64,000 bases of DNA from Clostridia bacterium (GTDB taxonomy: Bacteria; Bacillota; Clostridia; Oscillospirales; CAG-272), in the NCBI GenBank assembly GCA_017532425.1, contig JAFXJH010000019.1, positions 1,029-65,028 on the forward strand. The letters are read 5' to 3'. The notes under the pieces are model-generated. The model searched no databases. It worked only from the letters and a program-made list of their open reading frames with translations, and had not been told where the DNA came from. The translations under genes were made by a program, and so were the position numbers. Positions 2 to 62,998 of this stretch are shown here, piece after piece (positions within the stretch are counted from its first letter, which is position 1; every line of letters begins with the position of its first letter).

Positions 2-2695
2 TTTACGCACACCGAGCATACAGCGGGTGAAATTTTCCCGGAAATCAAGGCAAGCTGTATGCAAGAAGGAAAGAAAGAATATTCGATATGTACGGTATGT
101 AGCGAATTTATATACAATAACGGCGGAGTGTGGACGTTAATAACCGAAGCAGAGCTTATAATTCCGAAGGATATGCAAAATCACCTTGATAAAAAAGAAG
201 ATATTCAGTGGACGTATAACGAAAGCACCCATCAAAAAATATGTCAATGCGGCACGACCCTTGCATCGGAAAATCATAGTATAGACCCGAATGCGCTCGA
301 GGGTACGTGCAATATTTGTAATTATACCAAAGTGCATATTTGCAACGATTTTACAAGAATTTATGCCGTAGAGGGCAACTGTATTACAAAGGGTACTGTT
401 GAGCATTATAAATGTAATGATTGCGGTAAACTATGCATCAGAAGCGGCAACGCATATATTGAAAAAAGCAGAGCAGACCTTGAGACCGAGATAAACGCAA
501 ATAACCATATTGATTCTGAGGAAACTCTCGAGTGGACGCACGATGACAGTAAGCACTATAAAATCTGCCGTTGCGGTAAGATATTTTCGTCTGCAAAGCA
601 CGATATATCACAGAGCGCACTTGAGGGGAAGTGCTCTGTGTGCAATTACTCTAAAACTCACATATGCACGTACACAGAGATTCCCGAAAAATCTGCAAGC
701 TGTATTTCTAAAGGCGAAAAGGCTCACTATAAGTGTGAGTTGTGCAAAAAGCTCTATATAAAAAGCGGAAATGAGTATCTTGAAACGGATGCAGCCTCAC
801 TCGTGATCGAAAAAGATCTTTCAAATCACGTTGATTCTGCCGATACTCTTGATTGGACTTACGATGCAAACGTACATAAAAAGGTCTGTCGATGTAAGTC
901 GATCCTTGTCTCAGAATCACACGATATAGATTCTGACGCGCTCGATGGTATTTGCTCGATTTGCGGATACACTAAAAATCACATTTGCGAGTACACGAAG
1001 ATTGCAAAGAAATCGCCAAATTGTATCGATTTCGGCGAGAAAGAGCATTACAGATGCAACGCTTGCGGAAAGCTTTATGTAAAAGCAAACGACGAATACG
1101 TAGAGACCACAAGATCCGAGCTCGTGCTTCCGAAAGACCCAACAAATCATATAGATACGATAGCATCACTGACGTGGGTATTCGATGACAGCGGTCACAG
1201 AAAGGTCTGCCGATGCGGTACTGTGCGCGAATCGAGCGGACATTCGATAAGAAACGCACTCGAAGGTGAGTGTACCACCTGCGGATACGTCAGAGTTCAC
1301 AGCTGCACGTATACCGAGATCCCCGAAATTCCCGCAAACTGTATGGAAAATGGAGTGAAATCCCACTACAGATGTGATGCCTGCGAGAAGCTTTACGTAA
1401 AATACGATGAAGCGTATATCGAAACCGATAAGAATCAGCTCGTAATCGAAAAAGATCTTTCAAATCACGTTGATTCTGCCGATACTCTTGATTGGACTCT
1501 CGATGCAAACGCGCACCAAAAGGTCTGCCGATGTAAGTCGATTCTTGTCTCAGAATCACACGATATAGATTCTGACGCGCTTGAAGGCATCTGCTCGGTA
1601 TGCGGATACACTAAAAAACACACTTGCGACTATACGAAGATTGCGAAAAAATCGCCAAATTGTATCGATTTCGGTGAAAAAGAGCATTACAAGTGCAACG
1701 CTTGCGGAAAGCTTTATGTAAAAGCAAACGACGAATACATAGAGACCACAAGATCCGAGCTCGTGCTTCCGAAAGATCCGACAAGTCATATAGACACGAT
1801 AGCATCTCTGCCGTGGACGTTTGATGACAGCGGTCACAGAAAGGTCTGCCGTTGCGGAGTTGTGCGCGAGTCAAGCGGACATTCGATAAGAAATGCTCTC
1901 GAGGGTGAATGCACCACCTGCGGATACGTCAGAGTCCACACTTGTACGTATACAGAGATCCCCGAAACGCCCGCAAGCTGTATGACGAAGGGCGAAATAG
2001 CACACTATATATGCGTTTCCTGCAAAAATCTCTATATAAAGAGCGGAAATAAGTACTTGCTGACCGATAAGTCATCTCTCGTGATCGCAAAGGATCCGGA
2101 TAGCCATATAGACGTCGCAGACGATATTCAGTGGTCCTATGACAAAAGTACTCACAGTAAGCTTTGCAGATGCGGAGTTAAGCTTGTAGATGAAAATCAT
2201 AATTTCAGCAAGGATAAATGCACGGTGTGCGGATACGAAAGAGAGCATATTTGTACTTATATCTTTGTAAATGCCTCGGGCGGTGGCTGTTTGTCGGAGA
2301 GTATCAAGGCGCATTATAAATGCGATGATTGCGGAAAGCTATATCTGAAAAGTGACGGTATTTACATAGAGACAGCTCTTTCCGATATTACTTTCGTGAC
2401 AGAGCACTCTCTTAAAAAGCATTACGCGGACAAGGATCACGGAGCGTACTGGGAATGTAAAGATTGCGGACTTATTTTCTCTGACGAAAGAGGAGAAAAT
2501 ATACTGTCCGAGATACCGAAGATCGAAGAAGATACGGAAAAAGATATCCTAAAGGATGATGCTGAAGATAACAGAGTGGACAAGACAAAAGATAACAGTA
2601 TTCTTCTGTACGTCATACTCTTCTGCCTTATCGCTATAATAATACTGCTTGCGGTCTTGATAATACAAAACAGAAAACGCTTTGCAAAAGGATAA
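2..2695 (+). CDS. Cys/His-rich modular repeat protein with C-terminal TM anchor; 5' end lies outside the window
   Basis: The frame is open from nt 2. The 19 codons before the first Met (FTHTEHTAGEIFPEIKASC) already fit the module consensus, so the ORF-track start at 59 is internal. There are eight tandem ~107-aa modules with conserved H-x-C..C..HY-x-C-x2-C..NH..W..H-x-K-x-C-x-C..H..C-x2-C. The C-terminus has a hydrophobic helix ILLYVILFCLIAIIILLAVLII followed by QNRKRFAKG. Confidence 0.7.
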   Translation, partial: FTHTEHTAGEIFPEIKASCMQEGKKEYSICTVCSEFIYNNGGVWTLITEAELIIPKDMQNHLDKKEDIQWTYNESTHQKICQCGTTLASENHSIDPNALEGTCNICNYTKVHICNDFTRIYAVEGNCITKGTVEHYKCNDCGKLCIRSGNAYIEKSRADLETEINANNHIDSEETLEWTHDDSKHYKICRCGKIFSSAKHDISQSALEGKCSVCNYSKTHICTYTEIPEKSASCISKGEKAHYKCELCKKLYIKSGNEYLETDAASLVIEKDLSNHVDSADTLDWTYDANVHKKVCRCKSILVSESHDIDSDALDGICSICGYTKNHICEYTKIAKKSPNCIDFGEKEHYRCNACGKLYVKANDEYVETTRSELVLPKDPTNHIDTIASLTWVFDDSGHRKVCRCGTVRESSGHSIRNALEGECTTCGYVRVHSCTYTEIPEIPANCMENGVKSHYRCDACEKLYVKYDEAYIETDKNQLVIEKDLSNHVDSADTLDWTLDANAHQKVCRCKSILVSESHDIDSDALEGICSVCGYTKKHTCDYTKIAKKSPNCIDFGEKEHYKCNACGKLYVKANDEYIETTRSELVLPKDPTSHIDTIASLPWTFDDSGHRKVCRCGVVRESSGHSIRNALEGECTTCGYVRVHTCTYTEIPETPASCMTKGEIAHYICVSCKNLYIKSGNKYLLTDKSSLVIAKDPDSHIDVADDIQWSYDKSTHSKLCRCGVKLVDENHNFSKDKCTVCGYEREHICTYIFVNASGGGCLSESIKAHYKCDDCGKLYLKSDGIYIETALSDITFVTEHSLKKHYADKDHGAYWECKDCGLIFSDERGENILSEIPKIEEDTEKDILKDDAEDNRVDKTKDNSILLYVILFCLIAIIILLAVLIIQNRKRFAKG

Positions 2696-22426: not shown

Positions 22427-22579
22427 ATGGAAAAAATGAAAAAAGCAATGGAAAAAAAGGAAATGAAAATTCTTCTCTCCGTGGTGCTGGCTGTAGTTGC
22501 CGTAAGCGTTATGATGTGTACATTTAAGCTTGTCAGCCGTAAGAAAAAGCGTAAAAAGCTCGCGCAGGGAGAAATGTAA
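22427..22579 (+). CDS. Possible 50-aa single-pass membrane peptide
   Basis: MEKMKKAMEKKEMKILLSVVLAVVAVSVMMCTFKLVSRKKKRKKLAQGEM. GAAAGGTG lies 6 nt upstream of the ATG. The ORF is below the ORF-track size cutoff. Confidence 0.35.
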   Translation: MEKMKKAMEKKEMKILLSVVLAVVAVSVMMCTFKLVSRKKKRKKLAQGEM

Positions 22580-22597
22580 GAGAATTTTCAAACAAAA

Positions 22598-22958
22598 CAC
22601 CGTCATATCAAACGATACGACGGTGCGTAGGAAGACAAAATATTTTAGAAAATCCGGTAGCCAAGGAAAGGGGATTGGAGTCTGAGGAAAGGGGAAAAAC
22701 TTCGGCGTTTGAGATGGTTTTTCCCTTTCCTCAGTCAAACAGAACGATTTTGTCTGCATTTTACACCGTCATATCAAACGATATGACGGTACGTACGGAA
22801 GACAAAATATTTTAGAAAATCCGGTAGCCAAGGAATGGGGGTAGGAGTCTGAGAAAAGGGAAAAAACTTCGGCATTTGAGATGGTTTTTCCCATTCCTCA
22901 GTCAAACAGAACGATTTTGTCTACATTTTATACCGTCATATCAAACGATATGACGGTA
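22598..22958. repeat. 166-167-nt structured tandem repeat (2 full units plus a third copy of the leading hairpin)
   Basis: The hairpin ACCGTCATAT-caaacg-ATATGACGGT occurs at 22598-22625, 22765-22790 and 22931-22958. Each unit also has a closing stem AGACAAAAT/ATTTTGTCT and internal GGGAAAAAC/GTTTTTCCC hairpins. Confidence 0.85.
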
Positions 22959-22965
22959 TTTTACT

Positions 22966-23778
22966 TTAATTTTTGTTGAGAATCGATTTTATATCTTCAA
23001 AATCGGCATCGCTTACAAGAGCCTCGTCGCCGAGAGTGTACTCACGTCCGAGCATCTCGTACTTGTGAAGTCCGAGCTCGTGATATTTCAGCGCTTCTAT
23101 CTTTTCGATATTCGGGAATCGGTCAAGAAATTCTTTTATCTGCATAACGTCCTCTTTGCTTGCATTAAAGGTGTTGACAACAGGAATTCTTACCCAAATC
23201 TTTGCACCGCACTGATAGAGCCTCTCAAAATTCTCAAGGATAGTGCGGTTAGACATACCCGTGAATTTTTTGTGTTGCTCGTCATTCAGCGTTTTGATAT
23301 CGTAAAGAAATAGGGAAGCGTAGGGAATAAGCTTTTCGATGTTCGAAAATTCAACCGCACCGCAGGTATCGATAGCGACCGAAATACCGTGCTCTGCAAG
23401 CTTTTTCGTGCATTCGAGGATAAAATCGCTTTGAAGCAGACATTCTCCGCCCGAGAATGTCACTCCGCCTGTGTCCGAGAAAAAGTCGGCATCAGCAAGC
23501 AAAAGCTTCACAAGAGCGTCAGATGTGTACTCCTTGCCGTATGCGACAAGCGCGCCCGCGGGGCATACCTCTGCACCGTCAACTCTGCTTTTGTCCGCAC
23601 AGCTTTTGCAGGAAATGCATTTTCTCGGATCATACATAACGGACGTATCGCGAGTCAGACCCTCGGGATTCTGACACCACGCGCATCTCAGAGGGCATCC
23701 CTTCATAAATACCGTGGTGCGTACACCCGGTCCGTCGTGTAACGAGCATCTTTGAATGTTAAAAACTCTACCTGTCAT
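22966..23778 (-). CDS. Glycyl-radical enzyme activating protein (radical SAM)
   Basis: Contains SLHDGPGVRTTVFMKGCPLRCAWCQNPE plus the ferredoxin-like cluster CISCKSCADK..CPAGAL. Confidence 0.9.
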   Translation of the reverse strand: MTGRVFNIQRCSLHDGPGVRTTVFMKGCPLRCAWCQNPEGLTRDTSVMYDPRKCISCKSCADKSRVDGAEVCPAGALVAYGKEYTSDALVKLLLADADFFSDTGGVTFSGGECLLQSDFILECTKKLAEHGISVAIDTCGAVEFSNIEKLIPYASLFLYDIKTLNDEQHKKFTGMSNRTILENFERLYQCGAKIWVRIPVVNTFNASKEDVMQIKEFLDRFPNIEKIEALKYHELGLHKYEMLGREYTLGDEALVSDADFEDIKSILNKN

Positions 23779-23785
23779 AGCTTTA

Positions 23786-24736
23786 TCAGAAGTTTGCGTA
23801 TGTCAGCTTCCTCAGGATCTCCTCGTCGAGAACATATTCGGACATAAGGAGGTTTTCTTTGAGGTGATCGATGTTGGAGGAAGAGAAGAGCGGAACGATG
23901 GTAGGACGGTTCGGGAGTCTGTCAGAGCCGATAAGCCAAGCGAGAACGAGAGCGGAGGGTGCAAGACCGAGCTCCTTTGCGCTGTCAAGAAGAACGTTAA
24001 GACGTTCGTCTATCTGATACTTTCCGGGCATTCTCGCGATATTATCATATCCGCCGCCTGCAAGACAGGAGTAGGGAACGAGAGGTATATTGTTTTCTGC
24101 AAGATAGTGAAGTCTTTCTTCGGTGGCGTTTACGTTATAGGTGTAATTGAGCTTTGCTCCGCCTTTTGTGTAAAGATAGGTGTAGCAGGGCTGGTTTACC
24201 GTGAAATCAGCAAAGCCGTTCTTTTCGGCGATATGCTTTGCTTCGCACATACGCCATGTATAATAGTTGCTCGCACCGATAGCGCGTACCTTGCCCTTCT
24301 TTATAAGCTTATCAAAAGCCTCCATCGTTTCTTCGATGGGAGTGTTCATATCGTCGCTGTGAGCGTAGTAGAGGTCGATATAATCTGTTCCGAGCTTGCG
24401 AAGACTTTCGTCGCACCAGTACTCGATCTGCTTTGCGGAAAGTCCCGCGCCCTCGCCGTGACGGTCAAAGCCGACCTTTGTAGCGATAACGAGCTTGTCG
24501 CGTCCGCCTCTTTCCTTCAGCCATTTACCGAGCAGAGTTTCGCTCTCGTCGCCCGATGCACCCGGCCACCAGTGTGCATAGTTGTTGGATGTGTCGAGGA
24601 AGTTTCCTCCCATATCTACGAAAAGATCAAGCTGCTCGAAAGAATCCTTTTCGCTTGTTTTAGTGCCGAACATCATAGTTCCGAGACACATATTGCTGAC
24701 TTCAAGTCCTGCGCGTTCAAATTTTACTTTTTTCAT
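23786..24736 (-). CDS. Aldo/keto reductase family oxidoreductase
   Basis: Contains LGTMMFG, FLDTSNNY, IATKVG, IDLYYAHSDD and VRAIGASNY, which carry the AKR D-Y-K-H tetrad positions. Confidence 0.85.
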   Translation of the reverse strand: MKKVKFERAGLEVSNMCLGTMMFGTKTSEKDSFEQLDLFVDMGGNFLDTSNNYAHWWPGASGDESETLLGKWLKERGGRDKLVIATKVGFDRHGEGAGLSAKQIEYWCDESLRKLGTDYIDLYYAHSDDMNTPIEETMEAFDKLIKKGKVRAIGASNYYTWRMCEAKHIAEKNGFADFTVNQPCYTYLYTKGGAKLNYTYNVNATEERLHYLAENNIPLVPYSCLAGGGYDNIARMPGKYQIDERLNVLLDSAKELGLAPSALVLAWLIGSDRLPNRPTIVPLFSSSNIDHLKENLLMSEYVLDEEILRKLTYANF

Positions 24737-24809: not shown

Positions 24810-26996
24810 TCAGAATGTATTTCTTGAGATGAGATCGTCCTGTGCCTTTTTGCACATATCGACGAATACTGCGCTGTATCCGGTTACGCGTACCATAAGA
24901 TCGCGGTACATATCCGGTTTTTTCTGTGCGTCGAGCAGAAGCTCCTTGTCTACAGAGCTGAGCTGTATCTGAAGTCCGCCCTTTTCAAAATATACCGCAA
25001 TAATGTGAGAAAGATTTTCGAGTCCTGCTTCGCCATCGAAATTTCTGGGCTGTATCGTTACGTTAAGAGCGCCCGAAGCAAACTGATCGAAGGGGATATT
25101 TGAAATAGAGGAGAGCATAGCCGTGATACCGTTCTTTGCCGCGCCGACAGAGGGCTGACAGTTCTGACAGATGGGATCGCCTATGCGTCTTCCGTCGGGA
25201 GTTGCGGGAATGACCTCGCCGCGAGGAATGTGCCACGTGTCGTTCTCCGTGCAGAAGCGGAGCTTGAGGAAGGACGGGCGGTCCTTTGACGCATCCTTGC
25301 AGGCGTTTACTATAGCTTTGGTAAGCTCTCTTGCATAGTAGGATGAGGTGTCGTGACCGTCCCCCATCTTCGGAGAGTTCTTGCAAAGCGCTAAAAGAAC
25401 TTGGTCGTTTTCAAAGTTCGTGTCACACGCTGTGAATATTCTTTCGGCAGAGATATTCTTTTCGTTTATGAGATAATCCACAGCAGATGCTATATCTATC
25501 ATAGTGCCTATGCCGCCGAAGGGAACGACAAGGTTGGTGTTCTGAAAATACAGACCGCCTCTTGAAATGTTTTCAAAAGTAAAGCAGGAGCAGAATCTCA
25601 GCTGATTCGGATTAAAGTAGGGTTCCTTCAGCGTGGATTTCGAAATAAGCTCGGAGAATTTACCGAAGAACGTGTCGTAAATAGACTTCAACATTCCCTC
25701 TCGTGAGAACTCGCGTCCGTTTTCAAAGCTTGCACGGATAGCCTCCATAAGGGTGGGAATAAGACAGCGTTCAACACCGTAGTAGAATACATGATAGTTG
25801 GGAGCGTCCTTCGCGGGGATCGTCGGCCAGTTGCATCCGTAAAACTCGTGCGAGAGCGCATCGTATTCGCTTTCACCGAAGCTTTTGTACATTTCGCAAA
25901 CGCTGATGTCGTTGTAGACCATGATAGAGCCGCTTGCGCGCATCTTCGAAACGAGGGTCTTCCATACGTCGGCGTGATCCTTTGCAAAATCTCTTGTGTA
26001 ACGGAAAACGATGACCGGATTTTTGTATTTCGGATGTATGCGCTCGACCATAAGCTCTGTAAGACCGTTGCATACCGTCTTCTTGGTTTCAGGGTCAGTA
26101 CCCGAAAGAATAAGATACTGCGGAGCGTCGTAGCAGAGGATTCTGTGCCATCCCGTGCAGTTGGGAGAGTTTTCGCGGTTTGATATCTGATGCTCTCCGC
26201 GTCCCATAATGAGGTTGTTCTTGGCGTAGAATTCTTCTATAAGAAGGGCAGCCGTTTCTCTGTCTATACTGCCTTCGGAAAGCTCTTTTTCATATATCTT
26301 GTTCATAAAAAGATCGAGTCTTCCGAGCGCAAGAGTCGGGTTTGGTGAAATGTAGGCGCAGAATATAAATTCAATCGACCATACGAGCTGAAAAGCGGCG
26401 TGCAGAGTTTGCGGAGCGCCGGAAGCTGCCTCTCTGCAGGCTTTTGCCGAATCAAGCAGACCTTTTGCCTCGGCGGCTTCTGCGGAGCGCTCGATAAAGC
26501 AGATGATAGATTCGTATATCATTATTGCGCCGCGCAGGAAGCTGCATTTTTCCTCACAGCCCTGCTCGGTGTATATTTTAAGAGACTTTTCTGCCTCTGC
26601 CTTGAGGGCGGGAAGACCCTTTTCTATTATATCCTTCCAGAGGAATGACTGATGTCCTGCGTCGAAAAAGAATTTCGGAATACCCTCGTTTTTCATAAGA
26701 GGGGTTATATATTTTTCGCGGAAAGCCTTTTCCTCATCCTCATTAAAGGACTCCTCAACCATACGTCCGATAAGAATATCGTTTTCGCTGACAGGAATCG
26801 AAACTCGCGATAAAAACGCCTTGAGCGCGTTGCCGAGCTTGAGAGGCTGATTTTCAATATCCTTTACCTCCTCGCATATCTCGCTCCAAAGGCGGACACG
26901 CTCGGATGAATAGGTTACTACAGGCTTTTTTGTAAGGGCATAGATAGCCTCTTTTTGCATATTTTCTCTTAAAAAATCAAAGTTTTCTCTGTTCAT
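24810..26996 (-). CDS. Glycyl radical enzyme (PFL2-like), 728 aa, unknown substrate
   Basis: Glycine-radical segment DLMVRVTGYSAVFVDM. Contains ATPDGRRIGDP and GGLQIQLSSV. Candidate Cys loop EFYGCNWPT. ATG at 26996 follows AAGGAGA; the ORF-track start at 27092 adds 32 implausible residues. Confidence 0.85.
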   Translation of the reverse strand: MNRENFDFLRENMQKEAIYALTKKPVVTYSSERVRLWSEICEEVKDIENQPLKLGNALKAFLSRVSIPVSENDILIGRMVEESFNEDEEKAFREKYITPLMKNEGIPKFFFDAGHQSFLWKDIIEKGLPALKAEAEKSLKIYTEQGCEEKCSFLRGAIMIYESIICFIERSAEAAEAKGLLDSAKACREAASGAPQTLHAAFQLVWSIEFIFCAYISPNPTLALGRLDLFMNKIYEKELSEGSIDRETAALLIEEFYAKNNLIMGRGEHQISNRENSPNCTGWHRILCYDAPQYLILSGTDPETKKTVCNGLTELMVERIHPKYKNPVIVFRYTRDFAKDHADVWKTLVSKMRASGSIMVYNDISVCEMYKSFGESEYDALSHEFYGCNWPTIPAKDAPNYHVFYYGVERCLIPTLMEAIRASFENGREFSREGMLKSIYDTFFGKFSELISKSTLKEPYFNPNQLRFCSCFTFENISRGGLYFQNTNLVVPFGGIGTMIDIASAVDYLINEKNISAERIFTACDTNFENDQVLLALCKNSPKMGDGHDTSSYYARELTKAIVNACKDASKDRPSFLKLRFCTENDTWHIPRGEVIPATPDGRRIGDPICQNCQPSVGAAKNGITAMLSSISNIPFDQFASGALNVTIQPRNFDGEAGLENLSHIIAVYFEKGGLQIQLSSVDKELLLDAQKKPDMYRDLMVRVTGYSAVFVDMCKKAQDDLISRNTF

Positions 26997-27259
26997 AGTA
27001 TGATCTCCTTGCATAGAGAATATGGGCATAGGTGTGATAGATAAAGACACTTTACACCCATTTAAGTATACCACATAAAAAATAAAAGTCAATTATCTGC
27101 AAAAATATTTAAAAAATTTTTCACTACATAAAAGTATATCTTAAACTTAATAAAATTGACTTGATTTTTTTATAAATATAGGTTATATTTTATATATAGA
27201 ATGTCTGCGTATACGTTTTGGCAGATATTATAAACGTTTTTGAAAGAGATCTGATACAA

Positions 27260-54534: not shown

Positions 54535-54569
54535 AAAAAACTCTTGGAAACTGTCTTCCAAGAGTTTTT
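54535..54569. terminator. Rho-independent terminator
   Basis: AAAAAA-CTCTTGGAA, loop actgtc, TTCCAAGAG-TTTTT. Confidence 0.8.
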
Positions 54570-54573
54570 CTTT

Positions 54574-54866
54574 GTCGGAAACCCTTTTTTCAAAAAGGGT
54601 TTCCGACACCTTCCCAAAAACTTTACTGAAAAAGAAAGAAGAGACTTTTTTTAAGAAAAGTTTTTGGAGTTCCAAGAACCTTTTTTCAAAAAGCTCCTTT
54701 GCGTTTTTTGCAAAGTTTTTTGGGGAAGATAATCCCCTCTCACCTGCTTCGCAGGAGCTCTCCTGAAGGGAGAGCCTTCAAGTTTTTATTTTCAGCAAAG
54801 TTTTTGGAGTTCCAAGAACCTTTTTTCAAAAAGGTTCTTGGCAGGATCCAAGGACAGAGTCCTTGG
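54574..54866. repeat. Hairpin-module repeat cluster, locus A
   Basis: Perfect hairpins at 54574-54607 (16 bp), 54812-54841 (14 bp) and 54848-54866 (8 bp). An exact 37-nt repeat occurs at 54657-54693 and 54797-54833. Linkers at 54614-54633 and 54789-54807 are inverted copies of each other. Confidence 0.85.
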
Positions 54867-54868
54867 CG

Positions 54869-55963
54869 TTACTTCAGAATTTCAAGTAAGATCTTTGCAG
54901 CTTCGCGCATAGTGAGCTCGCCGTCGGAAATGCCTGATACGCTTATCGATTCCTTGCAGATATACGAAGCCATTTCGAGCGCCTTGGCAGAGGTGAGAAT
55001 ATCGATCTCAGAGTCGGATATTTCGCCGAAAACAGAGATAACGTCGTTCTCGTCGTCGGGAAGAGAAAGTCCGGCGGCAGCCATAGCCATTATGGCAAAT
55101 TCGTCATAGGAAACAGCCTTATCGGGCTCAAAATAGCTGTATTTTCCGATAGTTTTTCCGACGTAGATGCCCTTGTCGGCAAGGAGAAGAGCATCGTATT
55201 TGAATTCGCTTCCGAGGTCAACGTAGCTGATGGTGGGCGCTTTTTTTACGTCAAGCGATACGCTTATGATATCGGACGCGTTGCCGTAGCAGTCGGTCAC
55301 AATATAGGAAAAAGAATCCTCGCCCACGGCGTTTTTGTCGGGAGTATAGACAAATTTTCCGCTTGACGGATCATCGAGAGTGAGCTTCCCGTGAGAGGGG
55401 CGAGATACGATAGAAAAGGTGACGCTGTCGCCGTCGGGGTCGCGCGCGGAGAGATAGTCAATGCGGTCAATTCCCGCGTAGGCGGATACCACCTTCGAGG
55501 ATGCGCTCGGCGCAAAGTTGAGAGTGTCGGTGAATTTTATCGTGCAATCGATAACACGGGGATATCCCGAGGAGATGCATCCGAAAACGAAGGAGGCATC
55601 GTCTACAGACTCGCTTGCAGGGATAAATACCAGCTTTGAGAGCTTGCTTCGGGGGATTATCTGATTTGCAAGGACGGGCACTTTGCCGAGCATAAGCTTT
55701 CCGTCGGCAGAATCGGGAAGAATAAGGATAGTTATGCTGGCAAGACGGGAGCTGCCGATACATTCTTCAAATTCGTCGGTGTCAAAGCTTACTCGGCTTC
55801 CGCGCATGCCGTTTTTGGTGAAGACCGTGTTTTGCGCAAGATTGTCAATAGCGGGTGAAAGACTTTCCTTGGCGTGAGCGGCACACGGGATGATGAGAGC
55901 GCTGAAAATAAGCGAGATAAAAATAATTGAGGTCAGAATTTTGAATAAACGGGATTTTTTCAT
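54869..55963 (-). CDS. Secreted protein with cadherin-like/Ig-like domain and a possible SLH-like C-terminus
   Basis: Signal peptide MKKSRLFKILTSIIFISLIFSALIIPCAAHA. Contains DPDGDSVTFSIVSRPSHGKLTLDDPSSGKFVYTPDKNAVGEDSFSYIVTD. The C-terminal FEPDKAVSYDEFAIMAMAAAGL resembles an SLH motif. Confidence 0.6.
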   Translation of the reverse strand: MKKSRLFKILTSIIFISLIFSALIIPCAAHAKESLSPAIDNLAQNTVFTKNGMRGSRVSFDTDEFEECIGSSRLASITILILPDSADGKLMLGKVPVLANQIIPRSKLSKLVFIPASESVDDASFVFGCISSGYPRVIDCTIKFTDTLNFAPSASSKVVSAYAGIDRIDYLSARDPDGDSVTFSIVSRPSHGKLTLDDPSSGKFVYTPDKNAVGEDSFSYIVTDCYGNASDIISVSLDVKKAPTISYVDLGSEFKYDALLLADKGIYVGKTIGKYSYFEPDKAVSYDEFAIMAMAAAGLSLPDDENDVISVFGEISDSEIDILTSAKALEMASYICKESISVSGISDGELTMREAAKILLEILK

Positions 55964-62543: not shown

Positions 62544-62572
62544 AAAATCCGGAGCTTGCTCCGGATTTTTTG
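62542..62572 (+). terminator. Rho-independent terminator of murA
   Basis: AAAAAATCCGGAG, loop cttg, CTCCGGATTTTTT. Confidence 0.85.
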
Positions 62573-62576
62573 GCAA

Positions 62577-62863
62577 AGGGAACTTTTTGGAAAAAGTTCC
62601 CTCTGCACACCCTCAAAAACTTTGCTGAAAAGAAGAATTTTAGGGGCGAAATTTATGGGCAGTACCATTAGTTTTTTTCTTTAATAAAGTTTCTTGAAAT
62701 TCCTAGGAACTTTTTGAAAAAAAGTTCCCTCCGGACTCCTTCAAAAGCTTTGCAGAAAAGAAAAAATCATATTGAAGTCTACAAATCGCCCCTTTACTTT
62801 TTGTCTTTCCTTTTGAGAAAAGTTTTTGAAGTTCTTAGAAACTTTTTACAAAAAGTTTCTAAG
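62577..62863. repeat. Hairpin-module repeat cluster, locus B
   Basis: Hairpins at 62577-62602 (12 bp), ~62704-62731 (imperfect) and 62834-62863 (14 bp). The linkers are homologous to those of locus A. Confidence 0.85.
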
Positions 62864-62987
62864 CGGGATCCAAGGGCAGAGCCCTTGGCGGGATTCAAGG
62901 GCAGAGCCCTTGGCGGGATTCAAGGGCAGAGCCCTTGGCGGGATTCAAGGGCAGAGTCCTTGGTGGGTTTCAGGGCAGAGCCCTGAG
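62864..62987 (+). repeat. 25-nt tandem hairpin array (4 full units plus 1 degenerate unit)
   Basis: The unit cgggatTCAAGGGCagaGCCCTTGg occurs at 62864, 62889, 62914 and 62939. A degenerate unit spans 62964-62987. The array ends 2 nt before the GAAAGGA RBS of the next gene. Confidence 0.9.
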
Positions 62988-62998
62988 AAAGGATAAAA

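Follow-up and report, generated by a model that had tools for sequence, protein, structure and literature searches.

Between the end of a GRE-AKR-activase operon and a small gene that converges on it, the window (the whole stretch of 64,000 nucleotides analysed here) carries a tandem array of structured units, and the question raised by this locus is whether the array regulates the operon or is a repeat with a history of its own. The first-pass annotation took it for a repeated terminator/antiterminator or a 3'-UTR-derived sRNA on the strand of the operon.

Tandem Repeats Finder reports a single array at this site, 22597-22958 (period 167, 2.2 copies, 93% matches, score 638), confirming the description of two full units with a third hairpin. 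All three hairpin copies are present, but two of them start one nucleotide away from where they had been placed. The closing stem, the strong hairpin and the competing 9-mers occur in both units (Table 1). Each core measures ~123 nt and contains a pyrimidine-rich single-stranded stretch when read on the minus strand, and units 1 and 2 differ from each other by ~6%. The 26-nt hairpin that accompanies the cores, ACCGTCATATC-AAAC-GATATGACGGT, has three copies, all within the array, with 0 expected from shuffles. In a terminator consensus scan of the array only the outer copies were flagged, T1 on the minus strand (tail GTTTTGTTTG, TTTGTTTG in the scan output) and T3 on the plus strand (tail ATTTTACTTTAATTTTT, TTTACTTTAA in the scan output), each having a GC stem-loop followed by a U-tract on that strand. 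A covariance model built from 11 copies of the module and run with filters off found only the two array copies in the 64-kb window, module 1 with 99.1 bits (22654-22739, minus strand) and module 2 with 95.1 bits (22821-22906, minus strand). We rejected the array as coding sequence, since 167, its period, is not divisible by 3 and the ORFs that run across the repeat are spurious. The array does yield such spurious "proteins" in public databases (P0158, P0159).

Table 1. Features of the array and of the neighbouring genes, with positions in the window
Feature	Position	Strand	Description
Small membrane-protein gene, 50 aa	22427-22579	+	MEKMKKAMEKKEMK, TM segment and KKKRKK tail
Hairpin T1	22599-22624	.	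1 mismatch; one stem position G.U on minus, A.C on plus
Core module 1	22633-22755	-	Stem P1 around hairpin P2 and a C-rich single-stranded segment
P1 of core module 1	22633-22641 with 22747-22755		9-bp closing stem AGACAAAAT/ATTTTGTCT
CCTTGGCT of module 1	22659-22666	-	Family-invariant; plus strand reads AGCCAAGG
Competing 9-mers, module 1	22664-22672 with 22723-22731		
P2 hairpin, module 1	22682-22734	-	18 bp; bears the family-invariant loop
P2 loop, module 1	22698-22719		Minus strand reads AACCATCTCAAACGCCGAAGTT
Hairpin T2 (internal)	22765-22790	.	T-tract on neither strand
Core module 2	22800-22922	-	
P1 of core module 2	22800-22808 with 22914-22922		Closing stem AGACAAAAT/ATTTTGTCT
CCTTGGCT of module 2	22826-22833		
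Competing 9-mers, module 2	22831-22839 with 22890-22898		
P2 hairpin, module 2	22849-22901		
Invariant loop, module 2	22865-22886		
Hairpin T3	22932-22957	.	8 nt past the activase stop codon
Glycyl-radical-enzyme activase	22966-23778	-	NCBIfam TIGR02494, 294.7 bits; last operon gene
Aldo-keto reductase	23786-24736	-	GRE-AKR-activase operon
GRE	24810-27092	-	GRE-AKR-activase operon
Na/Pi symporter-PhoU gene		-	Flanking gene

The history of the hairpin can be followed through the neighbouring genes. The 50-aa ORF, which is convergent with the GRE operon and has no family match in Pfam or NCBIfam, keeps its place in the congeneric genome L010 (GCA_054266115.1; activase 88% identical, DNA ~80% identical to the window), where the order activase, convergent small ORF, Na/Pi transporter is retained with an extra 246-aa gene before the transporter. 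There the convergent pair is separated by a single hairpin, AAAATACCGTCATATCGACAGATATGACGGTATTTT, with A- and T-tracts on either side and no core; judged by its sequence, this is a classical bidirectional terminator, and it represents the ancestral state. In four further contigs (L012-L015) the small ORF (75% identical) lies at a different locus, upstream of rnfC, and is directly followed by one hairpin with an identical ACCGTCATATC/GATATGACGGT stem and a different loop. Because the small ORF carries the same stem elsewhere, the hairpin belongs to the small-ORF gene and predates the array, and what had been described as the leading hairpin of each unit is the resident bidirectional terminator between the activase and small-ORF genes. 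In L011 (activase 70% identical), neither gap nor hairpin follows the activase. Since T1 keeps the sole minus-strand U-tract and T3 the sole plus-strand one, the convergent transcripts are expected to cross the array and overlap by ~350 nt, each gaining a mutually complementary, hairpin-rich 3' UTR of that length. For two mutations the G.U falls on the strand that bears the hairpin's U-tract, the minus strand for the T1 mutation and the plus strand for a T3 mutation in the conspecific strain L018; these wobbles, two observations only, fit T1 and T3 as opposite-strand terminators.

Our data support the view that the unit is genuinely structured. The array folds much more stably than shuffled sequence on either strand (z = -10.9 for minus, -9.3 for plus), and the main hairpin covaries across other lineages. 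The assignment to the minus strand was not supported. It had been argued that mismatches become G-U wobbles only on that strand, which is true of hairpin copy 1 and of one stem pair in unit 2 but fails elsewhere: the unit 1 stem has an A.C on minus that is a G.U on plus, and the unit 2 stem also has a U.U mismatch. P2 wobbles are split between 9 G.U and 8 A.C, and folding energies do not favour the minus strand either (single-unit MFEs on plus versus minus, -45.0 versus -34.1 for unit 1 and -31.1 versus -31.8 for unit 2). The sub-hairpin followed by TTTTCT, which had been called terminator-like, can be seen in unit 2, but in that unit only, and was not flagged as terminator-like by the scan. 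Promoter-like sites in this region of the window, in L022 and in L024 are not above chance.

The number of modules at the array site is 0, 1 or 2 among relatives and strains. L001, 99.96% identical to the window, has two units, and L018, 98.5% identical over 17 kb, has one, arranged as hairpin-core-hairpin in a gap of 220 nt versus 387 in the window. The array also breaks metagenome assemblies, as 7/9 conspecific contigs fetched via the activase (L002-L007, L019) end inside it. The L018 unit differs from each window unit by ~7%, in strains that differ by 1.5% genome-wide, and has four stem changes that are not compensated: P1 has lost 1 nt, the left arm of P2 has two substitutions (A to T and G to T) and the activase-side hairpin has one (G to A). 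Among the five copies from the window species, we found no compensatory change in the primary structure at any pair, and the divergence of the units looks near-neutral.

The core is also found at a second locus within the species. In L009, and in the tail of L004, an extra copy lies upstream of a pnuC-type transporter gene, where it forms a mosaic with repeats of other families. The corresponding position in L016, which has a 99% identical PnuC, is an empty site, occupied by other repeats but not by the core. A metagenome scan returned L009 as its sole match. The module thus shows both dispersed copies (the pnuC locus) and empty sites, in L010 for the array and in L016 for pnuC, as expected of a MITE. 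The genome is rich in further mosaic palindromic repeats, whose families form clusters in the window at 54.56-54.89 kb and 62.57-62.99 kb. The covariance model, run over ~60 kb of L010, L011, L012, L016 and L017, recovered no true copy; a weak match upstream of pnuC in the sister species L017 (4963-5023, 16.5 bits) was discarded as a plain purine/pyrimidine hairpin without the invariant loop.

A wider family came to light through a spurious 54-codon ORF in core 1, which we searched against 1.84 billion protein representatives. It recovers two further spurious ORFs whose contigs carry clear homologues of the module (another protein from the ORF-based search, P0157 of 463 aa, is an irrelevant fungal repeat), and homologous modules are now known from at least three other lineages. 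L022/L023 have one copy adjoining a bidirectional terminator. L021 (GCA_965343075.1) has a tandem array of 2.1 copies next to an SRP RNA gene, with a period of 220 nt and 94% identity, and in addition a third copy that is degenerate; the likeness of the module to this SRP RNA is at noise level. L024, a siphovirus-like contig encoding tail and capsid proteins, has at least three copies plus one truncated within the loop, with the breakpoint after GACGCC, and was the only contig returned by loop-motif scans of 2.9 million viral contigs. A scan of genome contigs with the window-specific C-rich motif returned only a chance match, in a Sneathiella MAG within unrelated GC-rich sequence. Plasmid and phage collections, searched with the array by BLASTN, contained no match. 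Neither the window nor the other lineages reach the gathering score of any Rfam family, and alignments at E<=10 are only noise.

Read in the minus-strand sense of the window, family members share one order: purine-rich left arm, loop, pyrimidine-rich right arm, C-rich linker and CCUUGGCU, for which the compact motif is ACCATCTCANNCGCCGAAGTT-N(25-60)-CCTTGGCT. The 22-nt loop, AACCAUCUCA(G/A)ACGCCGAAGUU, is almost invariant, with single-base variants only in unit 2, in L018 and in the copy at the start of L024, and CCUUGGCU downstream of the hairpin is invariant in every copy that has it. In the stem of P2, 13/18 pairs have changes on both sides across 11 copies, with 91% of cells paired; the covariation score is 0.467 versus 0.249+-0.027 for shuffled alignments (0/500 reach it), well above all slid controls, and a duplex comparison shows each lineage's left arm to be most stable with its own right arm. 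The closing stems differ by lineage (AGACAAAAT, ACAACTTTCTTG and TTGTCGA): in MFE folds, ACAACUU-CUUG pairs with CAAAGAAGUUGU in L021 and UUGUCGA with UCGAUAA in L022. The GCCGA of the loop could pair with the UUGGC of CCUUGGCU in a candidate pseudoknot, although both sides are invariant and hence uninformative. The orientation of the module to flanking genes is inconsistent, being sense in the window and L022 and antisense in L021 and L024. Neither an associated transposase, with 64 kb of this genome covered, nor a target-site duplication was found. The flanks of the window cores (ATAAAATGT / TCCGTACGT for unit 2, GTAAAATGC / TCCTACGC for unit 1) are not direct repeats, and in place of such a duplication a complete 26-nt hairpin sits on either side of the core.

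These observations bear directly on several explanations. A repeated terminator/antiterminator, in which the left arm of the big hairpin would alternate between its right arm and the C-rich segment and so control read-through of the GRE operon in cis, could draw on the 12-bp helix that left arm and C-rich segment form in the window units (~-19 kcal/mol versus ~-10 when shuffled), on the A-U to U-A exchange that preserves this helix in unit 2, and on its 83.5% pairing in a 9-copy alignment, versus 50-69% when slid. However, the 83.5% reflects purine/pyrimidine bias and four window-species rows; the alternative helix beats shuffles in the two window units only, the own-lineage helices of L018, L022, L021 and L024 being no better than composition-matched shuffles (p = 0.14-0.86), and for the left arm of L022 the window's segment is a better partner than the one from L022 itself. 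The covarying pair advanced for this layout does exist, but it is reached in 255/500 shuffles of the five species copies and is broken in L018, which has the A of the C-rich segment without the compensating change in the left arm. Two conserved, mutually exclusive helices, one of them with a U-tract, as an attenuator would have, are not seen: P2 has no following U-tract and is not flagged as terminator-like. On either strand only the convergent partner gene lies downstream, and the same operon occurs without the element in L010 and L011, which argues against regulation of the GRE operon. The comparison of the alternative helix across lineages has already largely refuted this model, and we regard it as extremely improbable. 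Still less credible is a type I toxin-antitoxin pair in which the array provides the antisense antitoxin and the hydrophobic, lysine-rich peptide of 50 aa is the toxin. The small ORF does have a transmembrane segment and the KKKRKK tail, convergence would give ~350 nt of overlapping 3' UTRs, and T1 holds a promoter-like TTGATA-16-GAAAAT on the minus strand that points across the ORF; but the ORF has no toxin-family match, is followed by a single terminator hairpin and no array in L010 and L012-L015, and is missing where the module is found elsewhere. A functionless local tandem duplication by replication slippage, unrelated to any wider element, would agree with the strain-variable copy number, the neutral-looking divergence and the sister species without the array. 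We consider it very unlikely, as the core also occurs at a second locus within the species, and a purely local origin cannot explain why at least three other lineages have homologues whose stem covaries and whose loop is invariant.

The alternative that deserves most attention is a regulatory RNA. A 3'-UTR-derived or independent sRNA is a possible product of the module, which would then be the gene or the 3'-UTR source of a trans-acting sRNA on the minus strand, with the tandem copies as paralogous sRNAs. Such an RNA would consist of the 5' P2 hairpin, a single-stranded C/U-rich segment resembling an anti-Shine-Dalgarno sequence (ACUCC..CCCC..UUCCUUGGCU) and a terminator hairpin, and would repress translation by pairing with ribosome-binding sites in the manner of RsaE/RoxS, LhrC or csRNAs. 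In its favour are this architecture and a weak RsaE-like alignment on the minus strand, the covariation of P2, the conservation of the loop and of CCUUGGCU between lineages, the P1 closing stems that differ in sequence in the window, L021 and L022, and the same-strand intrinsic terminators 30-90 nt downstream in the window (T1), L022 and L024a. The L024 module and its terminator run antisense to the structural genes of the phage, an orientation that points to an independent transcript, and in the window T2 and T3 lack U-tracts on the minus strand, making read-through from the operon to T1 plausible. Against it, promoter-like sites are no more frequent than chance, the RsaE score is far under the gathering score, the minus strand shows no G.U excess, the plus strand folds equally well or better, the element is missing from the congener and its copy number differs among strains, stem mutations in L018 are uncompensated, and orientation to the neighbours varies. 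On balance we judge such an sRNA unlikely, while taking it seriously.

The reading that we prefer, and to which we give roughly even chances of being correct, is that the array is a recent lineage-specific amplification of the terminator hairpin together with a ~123-nt module of an undescribed low-copy, tandem-prone, insertion-polymorphic family of gut Clostridia. A compact bidirectional terminator would have acquired the structured module, the hairpin being co-duplicated, and the unit would then have been amplified or lost among strains, the arrays growing and shrinking by unequal recombination or slippage between the duplicated hairpins. As a by-product, the U-tracts of the old terminator would now be divided between T1, for the minus strand, and T3, for the plus strand. 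That the stem covaries while the loop stays invariant suggests that a trans-acting protein recognises the hairpin. Selection could act on a hairpin whose sequence-specific loop is presented to such a protein, which would copy or move the element and might be a transposase, a recombinase or an HUH-type enzyme; this could take place at the DNA level or on either strand. Insertion and copy-number polymorphism, mosaic loci and multiple copies, which form tandem arrays in two lineages and lie next to one another in a further lineage, fit the repeat reading, as do the loop-truncated copy, the phage-like contig, the near-neutral decay in one strain and the absence of strand bias and promoter.

Several observations count against this same reading, and against a classical MITE in particular: the absent target-site duplication, the lineage-variable closing stems and the co-duplication of the terminator hairpin. 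Because the sequence of P1 varies between lineages, terminal inverted repeats bound by a transposase are unlikely, and a structural requirement of RNA or single-stranded DNA fits better. No standard mechanism of transposition accounts for a 26-nt hairpin being duplicated, with its flanks, to either side of the core. The copy number is low (2 in 64 kb of the window, 0 in ~60 kb of relatives, and a single positive contig among 2.9 million viral contigs), and intrinsic terminators follow the module on the same strand in the window, L022 and L024, as they would in an sRNA gene. The lack of a target-site duplication, the variable P1 and the co-duplicated hairpin keep the structured-RNA reading alive, with its C/U-rich seed and downstream terminator. 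A further proposal, which we judge unlikely, is that the ~125-nt module represents a new structured class, defined by an almost invariant 22-nt loop, a covarying 18-bp stem, a lineage-specific P1 and a possible pseudoknot between the loop and CCUUGGCU. It could be a new kind of mobile element carried on a hairpin, with a loop that a putative HUH-type or other enzyme nicks or recognises, which would explain the tandem multimers and the loop-truncated copy, or a new regulatory RNA that spreads horizontally among gut Clostridia and their phages.

An invariant loop on a freely covarying stem, shared by several uncultured Clostridia and a phage-like contig, is an unusual conservation pattern, and the family, absent from Rfam, is a candidate for a new mobile repeat family or a new RNA motif of the gut microbiome. 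At this locus, the conversion of a terminator into a ~350-nt 3'-UTR overlap between the GRE operon and the small gene could alter the expression of both genes between strains without any coding change.

Comparison with known systems helps to place the module. RsaE/RoxS (RF01820) resembles it in combining a hairpin, an unpaired C-rich motif and a terminator hairpin, and was the only bacterial sRNA to align with the unit layout in the Rfam search. The alignment, although one of the better-scoring in that search, is non-significant (20.3 bits, E 2.7, below the gathering threshold of 79), and we rejected membership; RsaE is, moreover, a single conserved gene with its own promoter, whereas the array is a strain-variable tandem and dispersed repeat. 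In origins recognised by HUH endonucleases (rolling-circle plasmid dso, geminivirus-type), an invariant hairpin-loop sequence sits on a stem that varies but stays paired, and tandem multimers are typical. The module shares the invariant loop on a variable paired stem and the tandem multimers, but no Rep or HUH gene lies near it, and its loop, at 16-22 nt, is longer and bears no relation to known nick motifs. The sole HUH-like hint is the L024 copy truncated inside the loop.

The likeness to MITEs such as Correia/NEMIS, bcr1 and ERIC extends to size (100-170 nt), closing inverted termini, a stable RNA fold, insertion polymorphism with empty sites in relatives, and an intergenic position near terminators. 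Each window core has a perfect 9-bp inverted repeat, AGACAAAAT/ATTTTGTCT, yet the closing stems of L021 and L022 are unrelated to it in sequence, which leaves the inverted termini unconserved between lineages; the module has no target-site duplication, no parent IS or transposase was identified for it, and the flanking 26-nt terminator hairpin is co-duplicated.

REP and BIME elements of Enterobacteria and Pseudomonas are likewise mosaic palindromic repeats located 3' of genes, often between convergent genes (PMC3733652, PMC2817692), and form tandem arrays of strain-variable location. E. coli REPs, among them some between convergent genes, have been proposed to serve in the 3' UTR both to terminate transcription and to stabilise the mRNA (bioRxiv 10.64898/2026.03.23.713779). 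A REP is a GC-rich palindrome of 20-40 bp with a GTAG or CGTC tag left unpaired; it occurs in over 100 copies per genome, often in alternating orientation (PMC3733652, PMC2817692). In contrast, the module is ~123 nt long, AT-rich, low-copy and in direct orientation, and with two module copies in 64 kb and the three hairpin copies confined to the array, we did not assign the array to this class. Reading the CGTC of the hairpin as a REP tag was also rejected, since this CGTC is paired inside the stem, unlike the free tag that a REP requires, and dispersed copies of the hairpin are lacking.

BOX, RUP and SPRITE elements of pneumococcus are, like the module, structured intergenic repeats of ~100-150 nt in a Firmicute; they are modular, tandemly amplified, clustered with or inserted into other repeats and strain-variable, and they include terminator-like hairpins (SPRITE) and co-transcription with neighbouring genes (PMC10969869). 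They have no sequence similarity to the module, whose copy density is much lower; a covarying stem with an almost invariant 22-nt loop and CCTTGGCT is not described for them, and the module family spans several lineages and a phage-like contig. Our best reading is that the family is comparable to BOX/SPRITE/RUP, BIME and MITE and closer to a small mobile repeat than to a regulatory switch, and it is best filed as a new family within a known kind, the structured, dispersed or tandem intergenic repeats.

The gene for the 50-aa small membrane protein is kept in related species, where its N-terminus is invariant, and no Pfam or NCBIfam family was found for its product. The stem of its terminator is always the same, with a variable loop. 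On the minus strand, the terminator hairpin copy T1 together with its tail makes up a promoter-like site, from which an antisense transcript would run over the small ORF. Divergent from this ORF, relatives conserve a region that is not in the window and consists of a 23-codon ORF with a promoter and a leader; in a congeneric species (L010) and a relative carrying the small ORF at another locus (L012), it resembles an attenuator or leader-peptide region. Separately, in-frame, Cys-rich coding repeats near the start of the window appear to encode a repetitive Cys-rich protein.

Coordinates of the features
Feature	Contig	Positions	Details
Small membrane protein, 50 aa	window	22427-22579	MEKMKKAMEKKEMK, TM segment, KKKRKK tail
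Promoter-like site	window	22584-22611 (minus)	TTGATA-16-GAAAAT
Promoter, leader and 23-codon ORF	L010; L012	11190-11370; 440-620	TTGACA-17-TATAAT; MKNVIHHFANTHSFPLLIRSMRA
Cys-rich coding repeats	window	200-2400	~321 nt, 6-8 copies, HY.C..CGKL
SRP RNA gene, adjoining element array and spurious ORF P0159	L021	2858-3123 and 3024-3746	178.7 bits (SRP RNA)
Interrupted family copy	L024	13880-13912	ends after GACGCC
Hairpin upstream of pnuC	L017	4963-5023	GATAAGGAAGGGAGG...CCCTTCCTTATC; 16.5 bits
Insertion-polymorphic element	L009	100-230	GGGCTCTCCCTTCGGGCAGC...GCTCCTGCGAAGCAGGTGAGAGGGGATT
Same, partial copy	window	54704-54762
Palindromic repeat clusters	window	54560-54890; 62570-62990	e.g. GGAACCTTTTTTCAAAAAGGTTCC-type hairpins with CAAAAACTTTGCTGAAAAG
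25-nt tandem repeat	window	62863-62984	GCGGGATTCAAGGGCAGAGCCCTTG x4.9

Copies of the module family and one look-alike were found in other contigs. In L021, from another lineage, the element array adjoins an SRP RNA gene, and a 240-aa database 'protein' (P0159) is a spurious ORF running through the SRP RNA and the repeats. In the siphovirus-like contig L024, one copy breaks off within the invariant loop, with a complete copy immediately next to it; the point where it stops may mark a breakpoint or a nick site. The sister species (L017) has a purine/pyrimidine hairpin followed by a C-rich tail upstream of pnuC, which scores weakly against the family model and is without the invariant loop.

Another element is also insertion-polymorphic, being in one same-species contig (L009) and missing from the tail of a second (L004), which otherwise matches. 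Other palindromic repeat families are dispersed and clustered in the window, and also occur in L004, L009, L016 (99% identical PnuC), L017 and, from another lineage, L022/L023. Intergenic regions of this clade are thus mosaic and BIME-like.
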